DNA from: Stegostoma tigrinum
Taxonomy: Eukaryota
Assembly: GCF_030684315.1 (NCBI RefSeq)
Contig: NC_081358.1
Span: 6,690,496 to 6,754,495 of the forward strand
Length of the DNA: 64,000 nt
Reading direction: 5' to 3'
Below are positions 149 to 64,000 of this stretch, one piece after another. How positions within the stretch are numbered: the stretch's first letter is position 1; the number at the start of each line of letters is the position of its first letter. The notes under the pieces were generated by a model, which was given only the letters and a program-made list of their open reading frames with translations, had not been told where the DNA came from and did not search any database. A program made the position numbers and the translations under genes.

Positions 149-274
149 AGTGTTATATTTTTCCTTTTCATTTACTGGTAAATTGGTAAACTGCAAGCCA
201 TCACAAGAGTTGCTATTAAAAGGACTGTAGATGAACATCTCAATTTCATGCCAGCAGATAACATTGATGGAGAT

Positions 275-466
275 AACAAAGTGTGGAGCTGGATGAACAC
301 AGCAGGCCAAGCAGCATCTTAGGAGCACAAAAACTGACCCTTTGTCTAGGCCCGAAACATCAGCTTTTGTGCTCCTAAGATGCTGCTTGGCCTGCTGTGT
401 TCATCCAACTCCACATTTTGATATCTCAGATTCTCCAGCATCTGCAGTTCCCATTATCTCTGATAC
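275..466. mobile_element. PLE family A fold-back mini-insertion
   Basis: Head-to-head pLTR pieces (arms of about 65 bp) flanked by the 15-bp TSD aacattgatggagat (260-274 and 467-481). Confidence 0.85.
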
Positions 467-544
467 AACATTGATGGAGATGATAGCTTTTGCATAATTT
501 ATTTCTAATTCTGGTCTCTGAGTAGGTCCATTGCAACATTAAAA

Positions 545-810
545 ACAAATTTATACAGCACTTTTAAAGCCGGAAACCAATCCAAAGCCCTTCAAAGTAA
601 TTATTAAATAAAATTTGATACCAAGCTACATTGGAAATAAGTAAATGAATGAAAGATTGGCCAAAAAGATAAGTTTTATGAAGCATCTCAAAGAAAGAAT
701 AAGAGGCAGCGAGGTTTAGGGAGGAAATTTCAGAGATCATGGTTTTAGCAGCTGAAGATTTGGCCTCCAGTGGTGGTTTGAGGAAAGGCAAATTCGCCTA
801 AGAGGCTAGG
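545..810 (-). mobile_element. Old L2-like LINE 3' fragment
   Basis: Resembles L2 3' ends (atttatacagcactttt...gaggtttagggaggaaatttcagag) but is heavily diverged. Confidence 0.4.
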
Positions 811-1689
811 TATGGAGTTGAAAACTGTACCTAGTTCTCCAGTTGTGGTCTCACCAAAATGAAGCCAGAGTTCCCTACCACTTGAACTCCATTCCTCTTG
901 CAATAATGGTTAACAAATCATTTTCCTTTCTAATTGCTTCATGTGCTTATCTGATATCTTAGTATGCTTCCTATATAAGAACACACACGATTAGAGCTTT
1001 AAATTATTTGCTCATTAGGAGAATGAAGTGCCAGGGCATGAGAATACACGTGACTCCTAGTCTTTATGCTTTGCTTTTGGTCATCTATTATTCCACCAGG
1101 CCACCCCGCATCATTAATGCACTCAATCTTGGCTTTGTAGGAACCACCAGACTTCATCCCAGTCTTGGTTTAAATTTGGGTGCGAGATCTGAATGTTATG
1201 TTTGTTGCCATAGTAGCTATATCCATTTTGAAAGAACTATTCAATTTGATGTGGCAGCGATGAGCAATGGCAAAACTAAAAACAAAGGGTTTATGCTGAG
1301 AGCCATCCCATGAGTGATTTAAAACTGTGATAAAGGAAGATGGTTGTGGTAATTAGAGGCCAATTATTACAGCTGCATGACATTATGGTAATCCTTTCTC
1401 AGGGCTATGTATGCTGCTCATCCAACTTCAAATATTTCCTCAACCACCTTTTAGCCATAATGTCGGAAATGAGGTTTTGTGCTGACAATTAGGAAGTTTT
1501 ATACTCTGCCAACTTCTAATAATGAATTAACTCTTACAGTAGGCCCTGGATAATAATTAGGCTTGTGCTGTCAAGGGAAGGTGGCATTCGAATTACATAA
1601 CTACCAGATAATGATAATCACCAACAAAATTGGCCTGGTACCTATTTCTGATTTTTCAATAGCACCTGGGGAGTCACCATTGACCAAAT

Positions 1690-2726
1690 GTTTTACCACA
1701 CCAGCACGATCGCTGTAAATAAATTGAAATCCAACCCAGCCAATTATCACCTCCATCAAGCATCTGCACCTGATCACAGCAAAGTAATGAAAGGAATTGT
1801 TGACAGTGCTATCAAACAGCACTTATTCTGTGATAATCTACTCTCTAGCACTCAGTTTGAGTTCCACCAAAGCTACTCAGCTGTTGATCTCATACAACCT
1901 TGGGCCAAGCATGAACACAATTACATTCCAAAGGTGAAGAGAGAATCAATCCCCTCGATATCAAGACAGTACTTGACTGAGTGTGGCATCCAGGATCCCG
2001 AACAAAGGTTGCATCAAGGGGACCTGAGGAAGAATACTCCTCTGGTTCAGTTCAAACCTGTCACAAAGGAAGGTGCTGGTGGTTATTGGAAATCAATGAG
2101 CTTAGTTCGGGTACATAACTGCAAGAGATCCTCAGGTAGTGTCCTAGGCTCAACCATCTTTCACTTCTACATCAATGAATTTAAGTTCATCGTAGGTCAG
2201 AGGTGGGGATATTTACTGCTGATTGCACAACATTCCGCACCATTTGTGACTTGTCAAGGACTGAAGCAGTTTCAGCTCAGGTCTGGACAACATTCAGATT
2301 CCGAATGGCTAGAGGCAAGTAACATTTGTGACACACAGTTGTCAGGCAACACCCACTTCTAACAAGAGAGAATCTCACTATTGATTCTTGACATTCACTG
2401 GCATTTCCATTACTGAATCCCACAGTATCCCGATTCTCAGGATTGATATTCTCCAAAAACTGATTTGGGCCAGACATCTGAATATTACGGCTACAAGAGC
2501 AGGTCAGAAGCTAGAAATTCTTGTGCAAGTAACTCACCCACTGATTCCCCAAAGCCTGTCCACCACTTTAAGGCACAAGTCTGGATTATGATGAAATCTT
2601 CTCTGCTTGCCTGGAAAGTACAGCTCCAATGACACTCAAGAAGCTTAGTGCAATCTGGGATCAAAAAACCTGCTTGATTGGCATCCCATCCACATTCATT
2701 ACCAATGCACAATGTCAGAATGTGTA
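1690..2726 (+). mobile_element. Old CR1-group LINE (RT region), 5' part
   Basis: Frameshifted RT remnants (QFEFHQSYSA, GSVLGSTIF..YIN). It continues at about 4620-4960 after the Tigger. Confidence 0.75.
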
Positions 2727-4618
2727 CAATCTTCTCTGCTGTAACACGATAGTTGCGTTCTTATGTGACCTCATGCTATAGAAAATTGCACAATAAAAAT
2801 AACAAGCCTTAAGAAAAAAAATAGAGTTGGGGCAGACCACCGAAAATATTACTCAAAATCAAAACAAATATAGTAGTTAGCCTAACACAAAGGATAGTAC
2901 AGTTTAGATAAATGTTGAATTAATATTTAATAGTGAAATAATACAGTAAACTTGACAGTTCACCTTGAAAAGGTTTGAAGATAACTTGTTGGGGGAAAAG
3001 GGTGGGGTCTTCACAGTGGGACTCAAGCAGCTCTTTAACATCCTCACTCTCCACATCTTCAAACCCAACTCGCTTTGCAAGAGCAATACAATGTTCTTTG
3101 ATTCTTGAGAGCTCCTCTGACTGTTCAAAGCCTTTAAAATCATGAATAAAATCTGGGAGAAGCTTCCACCAAACTGTATGCAAGCAGTCCTTACTGACAT
3201 CACCCCAGGCCTCCATGATAATGTCAAGAGCATTCTTGATGCTAAAGCTTTCCCAAAATTGAACAACACAGTCCTTATTATCCCCCTCAGTAGCTGCAAT
3301 CAGCCTCTTAAATGTCCACCTTAAATTAGTTTTAAAAGCTGCTATTGTACCCTGGTCAAGAAAGTGTGAAGCCGGATGAACACAGCAGGCCAAGCAGCAT
3401 CTCAGGAGCACAAAAACTGACGTTTCAGGCCTAGAGCTAAGCCCGAAACGTCAGCTTTTGTGCCCCTGAGATGCTGCTTGGCCTGCTGTGTTCATCCAGC
3501 TTCATACTTTGTTGTCTTGGATTCTCCAGCATCTGCAGTTCCCATTATCTCTGATCACAATTGTACCCTGGTCCATGGGTTGAAGGAGAGATATTGTGTT
3601 TGGGAGTAGAAATAGTGTTTGATTTTTTCAGAAAGTTCAGCAATGGTGGGAAGATGGCTTGGAGCATTATCCAGAATGTGGACAGTCTTGAAATCCAAGA
3701 CTTTTTCTGGCAATAATTTCTAAAAACATCTTCAAAAATATCAACAATAAGGTCAGAAAAAAATTGCCCTGTCTTCCAATCTCTTTCGCTTGACCTAAAG
3801 TGGGCACCTACAGTAGACTTACGGTAACCTTTCAAGGCTCGTGTCTTTGCAGGGTAGGATACCACCACAGGCTTAAGCTTTAAGTCTCCAGCAACTTTGG
3901 CACCCAACAGCACAGTCATACGATCCTTTGCAACCTTAAAGCTTGGGGGGTGAGTCTCGTTCTTAGAAACGCAGGCTCTTGATGGCATTTGCTTCCAGTA
4001 TAAACCCAGCTCATCCAAACTGAAAATTTGGTCTAAGTTGTAGCCTTCTCCCTCAATCAAATTTATCCACTATCAAAGGAAATGTCATCTCATGTTCCTG
4101 GTCTGTGCTAGCAGCTTCGCCACATGATTTTACATTATGAAGAGGATAGCAATACTGGCACTAAAGGCAGGCGCAATATCACACGTTCTTTCATTAGGTT
4201 CATCAGGTTTATAACATTTAGCTTCTCTCCAAGTGTTATAGCTTTTCTTTTATGTTCACCACCAGCAATTTTATTACCAGGACGCTTCTTGTAAACATTC
4301 TTGTTACTTTGTCCTCCCATAATTATGGGCAACACGGCAAACTTTGGGAAACAATAGATGAAAACTAAGGAGTACCTTTCGAAAAGCACTTCTCAACAAA
4401 GCATGTAAGTCAACTGAATATGTGATGTTGATGTGGAGACCCTATTGGTGTAAACAGTGTATTCCTCTGCGCACCATGACTCTTAAAGTGTTGAAGATGC
4501 AGTCACATAATAGCCAACACGTGTCAGCAAAAGGCCGCATTTTTCAAACAGCATTCACCTATTTATCAATTGTGTTACAGCCAATTGATGAAACACGTGT
4601 AAATACCATAAAGCACTG
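2727..4618 (-). mobile_element. Decayed Tigger/pogo (Tc1-mariner superfamily) DNA transposon
   Basis: Broken transposase fragments: RKAITLGEKLNVI (psq-type HTH), EGYNLDQIFSLDELGLYWKQMPSR...FKVAKDRMTVLLGA.VAGDLKLKP, DQGTIAAFK, FWESFSIKNALDIIMEAWGDVS. It interrupts a LINE after a TA at 2725-2726. The termini are degraded. Confidence 0.85.
3358..3559. mobile_element. PLE family A fold-back mini-insertion inside Tigger transposase
   Basis: Inverted arms centred on gcctagagctaagc. 14-bp TSD attgtaccctggtc (3344-3357 and 3560-3573). Confidence 0.88.
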
Positions 4619-12479: not shown

Positions 12480-13250
12480 TAACAAGGAACAAAAACAGAA
12501 GTTGCTGGAAAAGCTCAGTAGGCCTGGCAGCATCTGTAAAGAAAAAAATCAGAGTTAACGTTTCGGACCCAGTGACCTTTCCTCAGAGCTGATGGTGGCT
12601 GGGAAATATCAGTTTATAGGCAGAAAATAGGGAGGTGGGTGTGGGGTAGGGAGTAAACAATAGGATATAGAGCCTAAAGAGAGAGAGAAGAGCAGTTGGA
12701 TAGACAAAGCAGTTGGTAACGATCAGGCTGGGATGGTGAATAGTTGTTAATGGGGAATAGTAGTGACTAACAACAGGGAATGTGTAACGGCAGGCTATGT
12801 GGCAACAAGGCTTGGTCTGTGCCGCAGGGGGCTGGACATGGGAGGTTTTACACCCTAAAATTATTGAACTTGATATTGAGTCCATGGGGTTGTAGGGTTT
12901 CCAAGCGGAAAATAAGGTGTTGCTCTTTCAGCTTGCAATGAGCTTCGCTGGCACACTGTAGCAAGCCAGAGGTAGAGATGTTGGCCAGGGAACAGGGTGG
13001 TATGTTAAAGTGGCAGGCAGCAGGAAGCTGAGGGTCTTTTTTGTGGGCAGAACATAGGTGTTCTAGGAAGCAGTCATCCAGTCTATGCTTCGCTTCCCCA
13101 ATGTAGAGGAGACCACATTGTGAGCAGTGAAAGCAGTAGACTAGATTATGGGAAGTGCAGGTGAAGTGTTGCTTCACCTGGAAGGTTATGTTTCGGCCTT
13201 TGGATAATGGGGAGGGAGGAGATAAAAGATGTTGCATTCTCGCTGGTCAC
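12480..13250 (-). mobile_element. PLE family C 3' fragment (GIY-YIG plus pLTR)
   Basis: ORF 12848-13237 NLVYCFHCSQCGLLYIGEAKHRLDDCFLEH...RLETLQPHGLNIKF. Its pLTR end is shared with 36135-36302 and 53712-53868. Confidence 0.88.
12553..12590 (-). ncRNA. Hammerhead motif (PLE family C), stems partly mutated
   Basis: Minus strand agct-CTGAGGA-A-aggtcactgggtcc-GAAA-cg-TT-aact. Confidence 0.6.
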
Positions 13251-16914: not shown

Positions 16915-17790
16915 TGATTTGATTTATTATTGTCACATGTACCTAGGAACAGTGAAAATTTTATTTTGCATGCAGTAAAGGCAGATCATACTATACAAAG
17001 TGCATTAGGGTAGTATAACACAGCGAGAAACACAAAGTTGTGGCTGCAGGGAAGATGTACAGAGAGCATTATCAATGTTAAACTTAAAATTTGCGAGGTC
17101 CATTCAGAAGTCTAATAACAGCAGGGAAGATGCTTTTCTTGAATCTATTCATACGTGTATACAAACTCTTATATCTTCTTGGAATTCACTTGGAATACTG
17201 CGTCCAGTTCTGGGCGCCCTATTATAGGAAAGATGTGGATGCTTTGGAGAGGGTTCAGAGGAGGTTTACCAGGATGCTGCCTGGACTGGAGGGCTTATCT
17301 TATGAAGAGAGGTTGACTGAGCTCGGTCTCTTTTCATTGGAGAAAAGGAGGAGGAGAGGGGACCTAATTGAGGTATACAAGATAATGAGAGGCATAGATA
17401 GAGTTGATAGCCAGAGACTATTTCCCAGGGCAGAAATGGCTAGCACGGGGGGTCATAGTTTTAAGCTGGTTGGTGGAAAGTATAGAGGGGATGTCAGAGG
17501 CAGGTTCTTTACGCAGAGAGTTGTGAGAGCATGGAATGCGTTGCCAGCAGCAGTTGTGGAAGCAAGGTCATTGGGGTCATTTAAGAGACTGCTGGACATG
17601 TATATGGTCACAGAAATTTAAGGGTGCATACATGAGGATCAATGGTCGGCACAACATTGTGGGCTGAAGGGCCTGTTCTGTGCTGTACTGTTCTATGTTC
17701 TATGTTCTTCCCGCTGGAAGAGGGTGGAAGAGAGTATAGTCAGGGTGTGAGGGGTCTTTGATTATGTAGAAGTTTTGAAGGGACAGCCAA
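16915..17790 (-). mobile_element. Rex1/Babar LINE 3' end split by a CR1 insertion
   Basis: Joining 17709-17766 to 17095-17178 gives minus-strand IIKDPSHPDYTLFHPLPAGRRYKSLYTRMNRFKKSIFPAVIRLLNG, a typical Rex1 C-terminus, with an (atcaa)n tail. Confidence 0.75.
17185..17708 (+). mobile_element. Young CR1 LINE 3' fragment
   Basis: Uninterrupted HLEYCVQFWAPYYRKDVDALERVQRRFTRMLPGL...FFTQRVVRAWNALP with a (ttctatg)n tail. Confidence 0.92.
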
Positions 17791-19774: not shown

Positions 19775-20540
19775 AATTATACAGTGCAGAACCGGCCCTT
19801 CGGCCCTCGATGTTGCGCCAACCTGTGAACTAATCTAAGCCCCTCCCCCTACACTATCCCATCATCATCCATATGCTTATCCAAGGGCTGTTTAAATGCC
19901 CCTCATGTGGCTGAGTTAACTACATTGGCAGGCAGGGCATTCCACACCCTTACGACTCTCTAAGTGAAGAACCTACCTCTGACATCTATCTTAAATCCAT
20001 CACCCCTCAGTTTGTAGCTATACCCCCTTGTACAAGCTGACACCATCATCCTCGGAAAAAGGCTCTCACTGTCCACCCTATCTAATCCTCTGATCACCTT
20101 GTATGCCTCTATTAAATCCCCTCTTAGCCTCCTTCTCTCCAATGAGAACAGACCCAAGTCCCTGAGCCTTTCTTCATAGGGCCTTTGCTCCAGACCAGGC
20201 AACATCTTGGTAAATCTCCTCTGCACCTTTTCCAATGCTTCCACATCCTTCCTGTAATGGGACGACCAGAACTGCACGCAATATTCCAAATGAGGCCGCA
20301 CTAGCGTTTTGTACAGTTGCAGCATGACATCACCGCTCCAGACCTCAATCCCTCTACCAATAAAACTTAACACACCGTAAGCATTTTTAACAGCACTACC
20401 AACCTGGGTGGCAACTTTCAAGGTTCTATGTACATGGACACCAAGATCCTTCTGCACATCCACACTACCAAGAATCTTTCCATTGACCCAGTATTCTGCC
20501 TTCCTATTATTCTTTCCAAAGTGAATCACCTCACATTCGA
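19775..20540 (-). mobile_element. CR1 LINE 3' fragment
   Basis: ORF 19960-20544 CEVIHFG...[12 protein letters not shown]...RRLRGDLIE. Confidence 0.92.
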
Positions 20541-21134
20541 ACATCTGGGAGGCAGAAGTTATTTAGTGGCAACAGCTTTTGTAAAAACCTCATGTTTTAT
20601 ATGAATTAAATCTTTAAGAACTGTGGAGGGCAAGAAGAAAAAAAATATGTTTCTAAAAAAAGAACTGACCAGGATGGTTCCATAATTTCACAACGAGGAA
20701 TACAATTACTAGTTAGAATTTTGTATTTTGTGGCTGTGGATTTCCTGCAATGTGCAGATGTTCAGTAGCTGAGGAATTGCTTACAAAAGAACCTGATTGG
20801 TTGTCAGCTAACTGAGCAGTTTGGAACTGGAAATGAGTTACAGAGACATAGTCAGACAATGAAAGAGAGAAGCACAGAAGGTTGTGTTGCCCTCTCTAGC
20901 AGAATCTGCCTCTTCTCTGCAGTAAAAAAAACTTAGTTTAAGCTTGAATAAACCAAGCATCTTTCCTGATGTAGTTGCTGTGAGCTGTGGCCTTTGAATA
21001 GATAAATCAGAGACATTTTCCAAGTGAATCAGTTGGTTTGTTCTTCTTATAAATCAGTAGAAGCTCCTAGAGAAAGATAATGGAATACTATGGGCCTGTT
21101 TTGCCAAAGTAGAATCTTCTTAACATCAGAAAGT

Positions 21135-31410: not shown

Positions 31411-31590
31411 GAGATGCTGCTGGGCCTGCTGTGTTCATCCAGCTCCACACTTTGTTACCTGGTGAGTCTCCATCTTGTTTCAGAGACAGTAGGAACTGCA
31501 GGTGCTGGTAAATCAGAGATGAACACAGCAGGCCAAGCAGCATCAGAGGAGCAGGAAAGCTACTGTTTCAGACCTAAGCCCTTCTTCATC
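31411..31590. mobile_element. Two short PLE family A pLTR fragments in opposite orientation
   Basis: gatgctgctgggcctgctgtgttcatccagc on +, then a minus-strand pLTR end running to a decayed hammerhead (cccttcttcatc). Confidence 0.7.
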
Positions 31591-38410: not shown

Positions 38411-38549
38411 AGAGAGCTACTCTTCATATTGAACATTAAAGTTTCAAATCAAAGTATATTTTGTCCCTTTGGCACCCTTGGGACTACTTCTAATATCAGT
38501 AGGTAAAAATCAAAGAGTGTCATCTAATCTGAACAATACTATTTTATCC

Positions 38550-38685
38550 AAGAAAACAAAATGTGGGGCTGGATGAACACAGCAGGCCAAGCAACATCTT
38601 AGGAGCTGCTTGGCCTGCTGTGTTCATCCAGCCTCACACTTTGTTATCTTGGATTCTCCAGCATCTGCAGTTCCCATTATGTCTG
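38550..38685. mobile_element. PLE family A fold-back mini-insertion
   Basis: Inverted arms with TSD aatactattttatcc / aatactactttatcc (38535-38549 and 38686-38700, one mismatch). Confidence 0.82.
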
Positions 38686-38959
38686 AATACTACTTTATCC
38701 TTATTCTATCAGTTTTAATGTGCTCCAACCTTTATCGTGAGTCCAATCTTATCTATGTTTTCTGATACCACTTCAGAAAATCCAAACAGGTTAGTTAAAT
38801 GTGACTCCATTTTTCAGGATCCACGCTGACATTTTCAAAACTTTATTTTCCATCACTTGTGTCACTTGTTCATCACATTAGTTCTTTGACATGCCGCACT
38901 GCACAAATAAAAAATTCGATTAAAAAATATACCATTTGTCTTCAGTCTCCATCACAAAC

Positions 38960-46395: not shown

Positions 46396-46490
46396 TTTTT
46401 TCTGACGAAGGGTCTAGGCCCAAAACGTTAGCCTGCTCCTCTGATGCTGCTTGGTCTGCTGTGTTCATCCAGCTCTACGCCTTGTTACCG
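46396..46490 (+). mobile_element. PLE family A-like mini-insertion beginning at the hammerhead core
   Basis: ctgacgaagggtctaggcccaaaacgttagc...; 11-bp TSD aagtgcgatct (46385-46395 and 46491-46501). Confidence 0.82.
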
Positions 46491-50011: not shown

Positions 50012-50398
50012 CCAGCCCAGTTCGTCCCCTCCACCCACTGCATCCCAAAACCAGTCCAACCAGTCTCTGCCTCCCTAACCTGTTCTTCCTCTCACCCATC
50101 CCTTCCTCCCACCTCAAGCTGCACCTCCATCTCCTACCTACTAACCTCAGCCCACCTCCTTGACCTGTCCGTCTTCCCTGGACTGACCTATCCCCTCCCT
50201 ACCTCCCCACCTACACTCTCTCCACCTATCTTCTTTACTCTCCATCTTCGGTCCGCCTACCCCTCTCTCCCTATTTATTCCAGTTCCCTCCCTCCATCCC
50301 CCTCTCTGATGAAGGGTCTAGGCCCGAAACGTCAGCTTTTGTGCTCCTGAGATGCTGCTTGGCCTGCTGTATTCATCCAGCCTCACATTTTATTATCT
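50012..50398 (+). mobile_element. PLE family A solo pLTR nested in the family B element
   Basis: Matches the pLTR at 53290-53675. The host sequence resumes after it (tcggtcaca / tcgttcaca near-duplication). Confidence 0.85.
50304..50335 (+). ncRNA. Minimal hammerhead ribozyme motif (PLE family A)
   Basis: ct-CTGATGA-A-GGGT-ctag-GCCC-GAAA-cg-TC-ag. Core is intact, with palindromic ACGT and GUC cleavage after 50333. Local stem I is only 2 bp. Confidence 0.72.
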
Positions 50399-60139: not shown

Positions 60140-62237
60140 GTATCAGTGATAATGGGAACTGCAGATGCTGGAGAATCCAAGATAACAAAGTGGAAGCTGG
60201 ATGAACACAGTAGGTCAAGCAGCATCTCAGGAGCACAAAAGCTGACGTTTCGGGCCGAGATTCTTCATCAGAGAGGGGGATGGGGAGAGCGTTCTGGAAT
60301 AAATAGGGAGAGAGGGGGAGGCGGACCGAAGATGGAGAAAAAAGAAGATAGGTGGAGAGGAGACTATAGGTGGGGAGGTAGGGAGGGGATAGGTCAGTCC
60401 GTGGAAGATGGACAGGTCAAGGAGGTGGGATGAGGTAGTAGGTAGGAAATGGAGGTGCGGCTTGAGGTGGGAGGAAGGGATGGGTGAGAGGAAGAACAGG
60501 TTAGGGAAGTGAAGACAGGCTGGGCTGGTTTTGGGATGCAGTGGGGGGAGGGTCGAGCTGGGCTGGTTTTCGGATGCAGTGGGGGGAGGGGAAGAACTGG
60601 GCTGCTTTTGGGATGCAGTGGGGGAAGGGGAGATTTTGAAGGTGGTGAAGTCCACATTGATACCATTGGGCTGCAGGGTTCCCAAGTGGAATATGAGTTG
60701 CTGTTATTGCAACCTTCGGGTGGCATCATTGTGGCACTGCAGGAGGCCCATGATGGACATGTCGTCTGAGGAGTGGGAGGGGGAGTTAAAATGGTTCGTG
60801 ACTGGGAGGTGCAGTTGTTTATTGCGAACCCAGCGGAGGTGTTCTGCAAAGCAGTCCCCAAGTCTCCGCTTGGTTTCCCCAATGTACAGGAAGCCACGCC
60901 GGGTACAATTGCTACAGTATACCACATTGGCAGATGTGCAGGTGAACATCTGCTTAATATGGAAGATCATTTTGGGGCCTGGGATGGAGGTGAGGGAGGA
61001 GGTGTGGGGGCAGGTGTAGTACTTCCTGCGGTTGCAGGGGAAGGTGCCGGGTGTGGTGGGGTTGGAGGGCAGTGTGGAGCGGACAAGGCAGTCATGGAGA
61101 GAGTGGTCTCTCCAGAAGGCAGACAAGGGTGGGGATGGAAAAATGTCTTGGGTGGTGGGGTCGGATTGTAGATGGCAGAAGTGTCGGAGGATGATGCGTT
61201 GTATCCGGAGGTTGGTGGGGTGGTGTGTGAGAACGAGGGGGATCCTCTTGGGGCGGTTGTGGCGGGGGCGGGGTGTGAGGGATGTGTCGCGGGAAATGCG
61301 GGAGACGCGGTCAAGGGTGTTCTCGATCACTGTGGGGGGAAAGTTGCGGTCCTTGAAGAACGTGGACATCTGGGATGTGCGGGAGTGGAATGCCTCATCC
61401 TGGGAGCAGATGCGGCGGAGGCGGAGGAATTGGGAATAGGGGATGGAATTTTTGCAGGACAGTGGGTGGGAGGAGGTGTATTCTAGGTAGCTGTGGGAGT
61501 CGGTGGGCTTGAAATGGACATCAGTTACAAGCTGGTTGCCTGAGATGGAGACTGAGAGGTCCAGGAAGGTGAGGGATGTGTGGGAGATGGCCCAGGTGAA
61601 CTTGAGGTTGGGGTGGAAGGTGTTGGTGAAGTGGATGCACTGTTCGAGCTCCTCTGGGGAGCAAGAGGCGGCGCCGATACAGTCATCAATGTAACCGAGG
61701 AAGAGGTGGGGTTTGGGGCCTGTGTAGGTGCGGAAGAGGGACTGTTCCACGTGACCTACAAAGAGGCAGGCATAGCTTGGGCCCATGCGGGTGCCCATGG
61801 CCACCCCCTTAGTCTGTAGGAAGTGGGAGGAATCGAAAGAGAAGTTGTTGAGGGTGAGGATGAGTTCGGCTAGGCGGATGAGGGTGTCGGTGGAGGGGGA
61901 TTGGTCGGGCCTGCAGGACAGGAAGAAGCAGAGGGCCTTGAGGCCATCTGAATGAGGAATACAGGTGTATAGGGATTGGACGTCCATAGTGAAAATGAGG
62001 TGTTGGGGCCAGGGAATTGTAAGTTCTGGAGGAGGTGGAGGGCATGGGTGGTGTCACAGACTTAGGTAGGGAGTTCCTGGACCAAAGGGGAGAAATCCCC
62101 CTCTCTCCCTATTTATTCCAGAACCCTCTCCCCATACCCGTCTCTGAAGAAGGGTCTAGGCCCGAAACATCAGCTTTTGTGCTCCTAAAATGCTGCTTGG
62201 CCTGCTGTGTTCATCCAGCTTCACACTTTTGTTATCT
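60140..62237 (-). mobile_element. Penelope-like retroelement, family A (Neptune-type), 5'-truncated with an inverted pLTR fragment
   Basis: Contains an RT plus GIY-YIG ORF, a 3' pLTR at about 60140-60620 and an inverted pLTR copy at about 62095-62237. Flanked by a 14-bp TSD tgaaattccaaata (60126-60139 and 62238-62251). Confidence 0.93.
60704..61987 (-). pseudogene. PLE reverse transcriptase / GIY-YIG endonuclease ORF, disabled
   Basis: RT motifs DVQSLYTCIP, GVAMGTRMGPSYACLF and YIDD; Cys-rich linker PCNRRKYYTCPH; GIY-YIG VVYC...LYIGETKRRLGD.FAEH. It stops prematurely at RRLQ*, whereas the copy at 52966 continues RRLQEQQLIFRLG. A stop and an apparent frameshift lie just upstream of the Met. 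Confidence 0.9.
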
Positions 62238-64000
62238 TGAAATTCCAAATATACCACATGCACTAGTTCTCCCTCATCTATTGTATGAGTCAAGTCCACA
62301 AATAACTTCAGTAGGTTTGTTAAAACAATTTTTGTAAACTTGTGCTGATTTTGTTTAAGCTAGTTGATATTTTCTAAGTGTTCTACTATCACAGCCTTTA
62401 GAATGAACTCCAATGTTCTTTCTACGCCTGCTATTAGACTAATTGGTTTGTATTTCTCTGTCTTTCCATCCTTCCTTTTTTAAAATACTGATGTAACATT
62501 TTCCATTCTCCAATCAGCCATTTGTGTTTCAAAATCTTAAGAGATGACAACCAACAAATCCATGGCCACTTCCTTTAGTGACCTGGGATATAAATTATCT
62601 GACTGTGGATATTTATCAACTTTCAGCCTTATTAATTTCTTGAACTTCTTTTTTTATTAATACAAATCACATTCAATTCCTCCTTACTAACACACACCTG
62701 CTTCCCTAGCATTTCTCAAAACTTATTTGTGTCTTCTTGAAGACAGTACTAAACTTGTTTCATTGCTCTGCCATTTCCTTGTTGTCCATCATCAACATTT
62801 CAGACTGCAAATGGCCTACATTTCTCTTCATTAATCTTTTTTTTCTTTTACATACTTACAGAAGCTCTTACATTCTGCTTTTATGTTCCTTGCATATAGA
62901 TTCATATACTCCATAATTCCCATCTTAATCTCTTGCTCCCTCTGCCCTCACCACTTTTGATGAATGGTTCAAGTTTTTTAAAAATTAACCTGTAATACAA
63001 TGCTGGTACACTGAGGCAGGCTTCCTGCACAGTCTACCCCCTGACTTGGACAGTCCCTGCTCTCATTGTACTCTGCCACCCAGAACAAAAGCACATCTCA
63101 GGGGCTACTTTTTCCCATCTCAGCTTTACAGCGTCAAGAGTTGGCCTGACTACTTTTCTAACCCAGCAGTAAAAATCCAGCTCTTTTTCTCCAATAGTGT
63201 AATAAATCATAACCTGTTCTTTATTAACTTTGTTTGTCAGTGATTTGTTTATAGGCCCTAAGTTATAAAATGCAGATTGCTCAGCAATTCTCCACAGAGT
63301 TGGTAATGGGCACAGACAAATGGGGAAGTAATGATTCTGTACTTTAGCATACTGGCCCATTATGTGCTGCTACTGCATGGATTGACATTGCTACATACAG
63401 GCCTTACACATACTAACATTCTAACCCTACTGGAAATAATTTACTGGGGAGAGTATAATTAGGTTTATTTGATTCGGTGAATTTATTTGTTGTTGCCTGT
63501 GGCTTGCAGCTATTGTGTTGCTTACCAAAAAACAGAAGGAATTGAACAACTTTTGTTTAAAATTTTTCCTCAATTTTAATCAATTCATAAAATTACACCC
63601 CTAATTATTCTATTCATGGTGCTATGCCTCTGAAAGAAAAGGCAGATTATACGGTTCATCCTTCCTCATATGCCCTCTGTGAAATCAATACCATTACATT
63701 GCTTTCAAGCCATACTACATTTTGATTCTTAAGATTATTAAAGGCATGGTGTCACCCTGGAGTCATATTGCTATAGCACTTGGCTCAGTTACTAACATTC
63801 TTGCTCAAGTCCAATTCAGGCCCTAGTCCAATACTTGGTCATCTAACCTTGGCTGATGCTCACTTGTCAGACACCGAGTATTGCATGATATCACATGCAG
63901 AGGGGAAGGGGATTTATTTTCATATCCTGGAAACATTCCTTCCTCAACAATCACAACCAGCAACAAATGTCCAGCTTCCTGTACTGTTGTGTGATATTGC

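Follow-up and report, generated by a model that had tools for sequence, protein, structure and literature searches.

Hairpin insertions in the window and their parent element

The window analyzed here is a 64,000-nucleotide (nt) stretch of the Stegostoma tigrinum genome (assembly GCF_030684315.1, contig NC_081358.1, positions 6,690,496 to 6,754,495). Near its start lie two elements of about 200 base pairs (bp), denoted elements 1 and 2, each of which consists of two head-to-head pieces of the pseudo-long terminal repeat (pLTR) of a Penelope-like element (PLE). The pLTR contains a hammerhead ribozyme motif, and its positions are numbered with the hammerhead C17 as 0 and the first base past the predicted cut as +1; on this scale, the core sequence CTGATGA occupies -27 to -21, stem II -19 to -8 and the CTAG loop of stem II -15 to -12. 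The parts of the two elements, and the host sequence of element 2, are as follows:

260..274: left target-site duplication (TSD) of element 1, 15 bp, the last 5 bases of which also match the element
275..338, minus strand: inverted tail-less arm of element 1, from about +60 down to -2
339..343: junction of element 1, 4 bases identical to antisense -18 to -21 (past a 15-nt skip over stem II) plus 1 extra base
344..466, plus strand: forward arm of element 1, from -17 through the tail, with the predicted hammerhead cut at 361/362 and the 5' half of the core absent
467..481: right TSD of element 1, 15 bp, exact copy of 260-274
2920..4069, minus strand: decayed remnant of a Tigger/pogo-type transposase (Pfam DDE_1, E=1e-8), with reading frames on both sides, the host site split by element 2
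3344..3357: left TSD of element 2, 14 bp
3358..3435, minus strand: inverted tail-less arm of element 2, from about +61 down to -16
3436: junction of element 2, a single untemplated base
3437..3559, plus strand: forward arm of element 2, from -15 through the tail, with the predicted cut at 3452/3453
3560..3573: right TSD of element 2, 14 bp, exact copy of 3344-3357

The reading of this DNA from the sequence only had described the segments 275-466 and 3358-3559 as independent insertions with TSDs of 14-15 bp, and this description holds, with exact duplications of 15 bp and 14 bp, respectively. The 5-base overlap between the left TSD of element 1 and the element itself represents microhomology at the tail-less priming site, so that the alignment of the inverted arms extends to 270 (270-337 with 360-427, 94% identity; the corresponding alignment in element 2 is 3337-3434 with 3437-3534, 84%). 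The TSD of element 2 consists of the four duplicated codons for the residues DQGT of LLQPMDQGTIAAFK in the DDE_1 remnant; because the remnant is split and these codons are duplicated, element 2 is independently proven to be a genuine insertion. The subfamily-specific letters in the arms differ between the two elements, which is consistent with separate insertions.

The inversion points, too, lie where they had been placed, at the CTAG loop in element 2 and beside it in element 1, so that both junctions touch stem II. In element 2, -16 is joined to -15 with 1 extra G, and the junction is centered on the loop; in element 1, -2 is joined to -17 via CCTTT, an insert that reads as antisense strand extended as far as -21 once the 15 nt between two GAC triplets on either side of stem II have been skipped. 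This skip is present in 109 copies genome-wide, including element 1. The CTGATGA half of the core is absent from both elements and, accordingly, neither contains a complete ribozyme.

The parent of these insertions appears, from its coding sequence, to be an endonuclease-containing (EN+) PLE of the Neptune-like type. Its open reading frame (ORF) encodes, in one frame, a reverse transcriptase (RT; RVT_1, E=2.9e-5 and 2.8e-4, both below the Pfam cut-off) followed by a C-terminal GIY-YIG domain (E=7e-5, above the cut-off). The linker between the two carries the motif CNRRKCYTC, and a CxxC feature of this linker is named for both Neptune and Nematis (PMC8557442); the clade label, which follows this motif, is provisional. 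The structural features that characterize EN+ PLEs are all present, namely, partial tandems (the pLTR), in which some copies run through the tail into the ORF, the 30-40 bp tail itself, an inverted truncated copy, and ends at about +65 and +100. Further representatives of the family in the window are as follows:

38547..38686: third short head-to-head element, junction +10 to +12/+21 to +23, 3' of the hammerhead; 15-bp TSD with 1 mismatch
46401..46487, plus strand: non-inverted short copy with a 14-bp TSD, 5' end about 5 nt upstream of -28
60141..62245: long head-to-head parent insertion, arms to -1846 and -75; 14-bp TSD; RT, CxxC linker and GIY-YIG region

The hammerhead motif was examined in 195 copies, chosen because they match one natural core at 20 or more of its 28 positions. 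The core bases C3, U4, G5, A6, G8 and A9 are retained in 183-190 copies, N7 is free to vary (T in 128, A in 56), the fourth pair of stem II is U-G in 148 and U-A in 32, and helix I comprises only 2 bp, U-A in 180 copies followed by C-G in 101, U-G in 64 or U-A in 18. The motif thus resembles the minimal type I hammerheads described from PLEs of metazoans (PMC4209133) in the extra nucleotide between 9 and 10.1, following A9, the G10.1-C11.1 pair, the presence of helix II, the palindromic helix III (15.2-16.2) and the very short helix I. It seems to behave as such a ribozyme, with self-cleavage predicted after C17, to which a spike of copy ends at +1, described below, points indirectly. A scan with Rfam (E<=1) yielded no hammerhead match, only spurious microRNA (miRNA) hairpin matches.

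Structure of the insertions and position of the breakpoints

Head-to-head insertions were collected from eight 200-kb blocks (1.6 Mb) at round-number coordinates on eight contigs, chosen without bias; arms were mapped against natural copies, and junctions were called by split alignment, with the requirement that arms reach +40, so that very short arms are under-counted. Together with 4 pairs from the window, the 99 pairs from the blocks make 103, of which 86 have a TSD above the 95th percentile of the null (8-25 bp, mode 14-15, mostly 13-16). A strict set comprises 70 of the 99 block pairs, the 29 others being omitted because the TSD score was below 7, the insert exceeded 30 nt or the locus was duplicated. 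The result is the same in a looser set of 86 pairs.

In its commonest form, an insertion of the parent has two arms placed head to head, each of which ends at a different one of two priming sites. Exactly one arm is tailed in 67 of the 70 strict elements, with one outer end near +65 and the other near +100. These ends scatter by about 10-15 nt (+56 to +71 and +90 to +108), and their pairing with the TSD is longer than in shuffled sets (mean 1.39 vs 0.41 nt, n=59, and 1.48 vs 0.46 nt, n=54). The lengths of the two arms are strongly coupled: 43 elements are short-short, 23 long-long and 4 mixed, compared with 32 mixed expected if arms were independent. Subfamily letters are common to both arms of an element in 88% of cases, vs 37% expected (n=77). 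Bases are inserted at 35 of 55 short junctions (1-16 bases); 'AGA-CCC' junctions were considered as traces of telomerase-like slippage, and this idea was dropped, many of them being simply the start of the opposite arm. In 7 of the 23 long pairs (in the C1, C2, C3, C4, C9 and C15 blocks), the 5' ends of the arms are no more than 35 nt apart, and the near-perfect palindromes that these pairs form, the largest of 3.2 kb, are still present in the assembly.

Snap-back copying requires a tailed arm that extends upstream no less far than the tail-less one. For 26 of 52 short and 12 of 23 long elements this fails, the tail-less arm being the longer on the upstream side by 5 nt or more; neither arm can then be a copy of the other, and therefore both are RNA-templated. 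The template switching that had been proposed is thereby excluded, in the form of a switch onto the first complementary DNA (cDNA), for at least 26 of the 52 short elements, while a minor hairpin or microhomology effect remains, seen at the 5' strand of stem II and in the skips.

Breakpoints are far from being uniformly distributed along the pLTR. In the strict set, the break rate is 0.0185 per nt over -39 to +5 compared with 0.0012 per nt over -300 to -40 (76 vs 13 arms), a 15-fold enrichment that bears out the expectation of clustering around the hammerhead. The clustering is not at stem II, which the sequence-only reading had taken as the symmetry center of the class: within -39 to +20, stem II has 19 of 88 breaks vs 17.6 expected, and the CTAG loop 4 vs 5.9. 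The largest class lies 5' of the hammerhead core; the interval -34 to -22, picked after the data were seen, holds 36 of the 88 breaks vs 19.1 expected (p=4.5e-5). Inside the C-rich region, the break rate equals the background.

The same pattern emerges genome-wide. Apparent 5' ends were counted at 12 sampled positions, as an exact antisense prefix followed by three non-matching bases; the prefix patterns vary in degeneracy and subfamily reach, microhomology moves apparent ends by a few bases, and for the eight prefixes checked, 63-83 of 135 survive in read-through arms. The counts are 84 at -37, beyond the wall; 2,324 at -33, 2,715 at -30 and 5,387 at -28; 2,431 at -19, 2,746 at -16, 1,115 at -12 and 606 at -8 in stem II; and 686 at 0, 3,961 at +1, 578 at +2 and 611 at +3 around the cut. 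The end profile, then, has a hard upstream limit at about -33, falls off across stem II and shows a lone spike at +1. Two walls can be distinguished, one located some 28-33 nt 5' of the predicted cut and the other, a spike one base wide, at the cut itself.

Perfect palindromes (24 nt, up to 1 mismatch) add to this picture. Those centered on AGCT (+1 to +4) number 1,061, compared with 244 centered on CTAG, 82 on ACGT and 44 on GGCC (+28); with pattern survival of 0.93, 0.58, 0.92 and 0.88, respectively, the corrected numbers are about 1,140, 420, 90 and 50. Non-inverted copies share the upstream wall: among 145 single arms, 41 have a TSD and 23 an abutting one, and of these 23 copies, 14 start at -23 to -34, 2 at +3 and none at -40 to -300. 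Two tandem mini-units (L230, C15:20164180-20164862, and C6 block 81390-81721) have an arm that runs through the hammerhead a first time and, the second time, stops at +2 or +1, which is the pattern predicted for a dimer RNA in which only the 5' ribozyme has cut. Older subfamilies carry CCATTTC at pLTR -32 to -26, and many of their ends are at -31.

The suggestion that the ribozyme sets the point where reverse transcription stops is supported for one class, through its cleavage product (the +1 spike and the AGCT palindromes), and for the most part not through its hairpin. That stem II stalls the RT, or that the cDNA folds back there and copies itself, is very unlikely and largely refuted as the main route. 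The predicted RNA fold is an extended hairpin centered on CUAG (-11.4 kcal/mol), ends at the 5' strand of stem II are above background, skips and CTAG-centered palindromes occur, and the close-ended long pairs would also fit. However, the fold is no stronger than that of shuffled sequences (z -0.18), the cDNA hairpin is weak (-2.9), the predicted stall positions, +3 and, at the foot of stem II, -8, are at background, stem II is not enriched within the break zone, and self-copying is impossible for half of the short elements. Precise skips across stem II via short direct repeats are recurrent: besides the GAC copies, skips via TTC account for about one-fifth of the -8 matches listed.

[quoted passage not shown] The recurrence of the AGCT junction 1,061 times is what such masters would leave. 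Nevertheless, this explanation is extremely improbable: 28 AGCT-centered loci span at least 3 subfamilies and have 27 distinct pairs of outer ends, 22 of the 28 have their own TSD of at least 11 bp, each junction pair in the unbiased sample of 55 is present at most twice, and the junction closest to that of element 1 has 5 exact copies. The elements also do not conform to the definition of MITEs: instead of fixed termini and a uniform family, the ends vary and one arm is always longer by the tail, and instead of a fixed short TSD, the duplications are 8-25 bp long, with the mode at 14-15.

Formation of the hairpins

We favor, as the probable explanation of these observations, that the hairpins are dead-end head-to-head insertions of the Neptune-like Penelope element, in which reverse transcription starts from each of the two nicks of a staggered target cut and each cDNA extends to run-off at the RNA 5' end. 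The endonuclease would leave two 3' overhangs of about 14-15 nt. Two start sites flank the tail, and each overhang would prime at one of them, aided by 1-5 nt of pairing. Priming on the copy of the site near the RNA 5' end would limit each cDNA to 65-135 nt. The RNA would start either at about -33 to -28, in an uncut molecule (at the transcription start or at a nuclease-protected edge), or at +1, in a hammerhead-cut one. End joining would then trim the cDNA ends and link them via 2-4 nt microhomologies or short inserts, and two cDNAs that stop at +1 would end in the self-complementary AGCT, resulting in a perfect palindrome. Under this scheme, elements 1 and 2 are best read as trimmed products of the upstream class, the joins of which happened to use stem II.

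In LINE-1 twin priming, both target 3' overhangs likewise prime cDNA, and the inversion lies within one TSD, with microhomology at the junction. The LINE-1 inversions rearrange non-overlapping parts of one RNA, whereas here the starting points of the two primers are 35-40 nt from each other and a single stretch is copied by both, so that an inverted duplication ensues.

A more specific proposition, to which we give slightly better than even chances, is that the minimal hammerhead cuts in the germ line and the cut RNA serves as a template. The twin-primed cDNAs would run off the cut and anneal via AGCT, the wall about 30 nt upstream would represent the uncut transcript, the balance between the two would have shifted in the youngest subfamily, and about 100,000 perfect hairpins would have formed.

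Several observations weigh against the favored explanation. The RNA 5' ends are deduced from DNA. Among the first 100 listed +1 matches, 61 are of the AGCT-palindrome type and 9 of another microhomology type; because 70 of the 100 fall in these two classes, microhomology choice supplies much of the +1 spike, and the remaining 30% extrapolates to about 1,200 ends, only about twice the neighboring positions. The counts at -33, -28, -19 and -16 are lifted by microhomology as well, and breakpoints there are ambiguous by 2-4 nt. One study found that cleavage by the ribozyme is dispensable in vitro, reported priming that needs no target homology and detected no RNA reads with an end at the cut (PMC11167929). 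Among short elements, 12 of 14 arms of the youngest subfamily end at or past +1 compared with 3 of 28 arms of the next-older one (p=3e-6), although no difference between their ribozyme cores was seen. Finally, the fraction of short elements rises with age, from 23 of 46 among the younger to 32 of 40 among the older (p=0.006), a trend that could arise if long palindromes collapse or are lost at a later time.

Long perfect palindromes are unstable, and the same age trend fits the possibility that long head-to-head insertions came first and were later deleted at the palindrome center down to the hammerhead ends. Such collapse may contribute, but as the origin of the hairpins it is quite unlikely. 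It cannot yield the upstream wall of the non-inverted copies because those copies hold no palindrome; in addition, only 1 of 55 short junctions is in register of the hammerhead's own quasi-palindrome, short forms already make up 11 of the 22 youngest elements, and collapse offers no reason for the one-base spike at +1.

The weakest step of the favored mechanism is what the upstream wall represents. The wall overlaps a pyrimidine run (pLTR -32 to -26, for example window 50301-50307), which we take to resemble a TCT-type or initiator (Inr) transcription start. Alternatively, twin priming could occur on a long RNA on which a bound protein or a fold at the edge of the C-rich untranslated region (UTR) halts the two cDNAs as soon as they have copied the ribozyme. 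The wall is located where the template becomes C-rich, its end is spread over about 6 nt, and the coupling of arm lengths would likewise follow from a single block on an RNA that both arms share. This version is unlikely all the same, given that it leaves the one-base spike at +1 unaccounted for and that the break rate within the C-rich region is at background. In one insertion (L244), moreover, where -32/-33 is reached three times, the cDNA passes -33 into the ORF rather than into the C-rich tract, and yet both arms end at -32/-33; this single case favors an RNA end over a roadblock.

Relation to known elements and implications

The insertion units of EN+ PLEs have been described as an inverted 5'-truncated copy plus a 30-40 bp tail at one end (PMC8557442). 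The shark family resembles these units in the inverted truncated copy by the 5' end, the tail on one arm, the pLTR hammerhead and the order of RT and GIY-YIG, and differs from them in that the inverted form dominates and about 60% of the units consist of two pLTR stubs. The tail is attributed there to endonuclease resolution, and the available passages contain no breakpoint distribution (PMC8557442). The Poseidon protein of Anolis carolinensis (PAc) cuts and extends both strands in vitro, starting at two adjacent sites; it needs RNA downstream of the start sites, and the product length tracks the template 5' end (PMC11167929). As with PAc, two adjacent RT start sites bound the tail here, with the hammerhead just upstream; unlike in PAc, which belongs to a different clade, the genome shows a spike of ends at the predicted cut, together with short microhomology to the target (PMC11167929).

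In Schistosoma, dual hammerhead motifs 100-700 bp apart on opposite strands have been noted, with no TSDs or junction positions given in the available description (PMC4209133); the elements in the window differ from these pairs in lacking half of the core. Non-LTR retrozymes are, similarly to the hairpins, short non-coding derivatives of PLEs built on the pLTR and the hammerhead, but they are head-to-tail, contain complete ribozymes and can propagate, whereas the hairpins are head-to-head, often carry an interrupted core and each seem to have arisen only once (PMC7229834; 10.64898/2026.07.22.740005). Elements 1 and 2, being head-to-head and devoid of CTGATGA, do not belong among the retrozymes. 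Many internally deleted units of about 330-450 nt (L229, L230, L232, L233, L235-L237, L239-L244, L246 and L247) also occur, in which the first 100-200 nt past the tail are connected to the 3' UTR at differing positions, often -95 to -160; a first look at the tail-to-ORF junction returned 952 candidates, and these units look as if retrozyme-like tandems had arisen repeatedly and independently.

The remaining related features of the window are as follows:

1652..2362, plus strand; 12848..13246, minus strand; 17088..17621, plus strand; 19960..20562, minus strand: a GIY-YIG fragment from a Penelope-like family of greater divergence and several decayed LINE-type ORF pieces, the latter presumably CR1/L2-like
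31412..31588: two older-subfamily pieces, arranged atypically

The inverted-plus-tail form of PLE insertions is already published (PMC8557442). A search of the open-licence literature found no mapping of PLE inversion junctions to the ribozyme, and within that literature the junction map, with the cut-site spike, the second wall and the subfamily shift, is seemingly new. The map is a direct genomic readout on two questions that are described as open, namely, how the inverted structures of PLEs form (PMC8557442) and whether minimal hammerheads cut in vivo (PMC4209133, PMC11167929). It also yields predictions for the existing in vitro system: cDNA ends at +1 and at about -30, and a stagger of 14-15 nt. 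Extrapolation from the 55 short elements in 1.6 Mb (2-12 per 200-kb block) gives about 110,000 hairpins in the genome, which are likely to give rise to double-stranded RNA and to be misannotated as MITEs or miRNAs.

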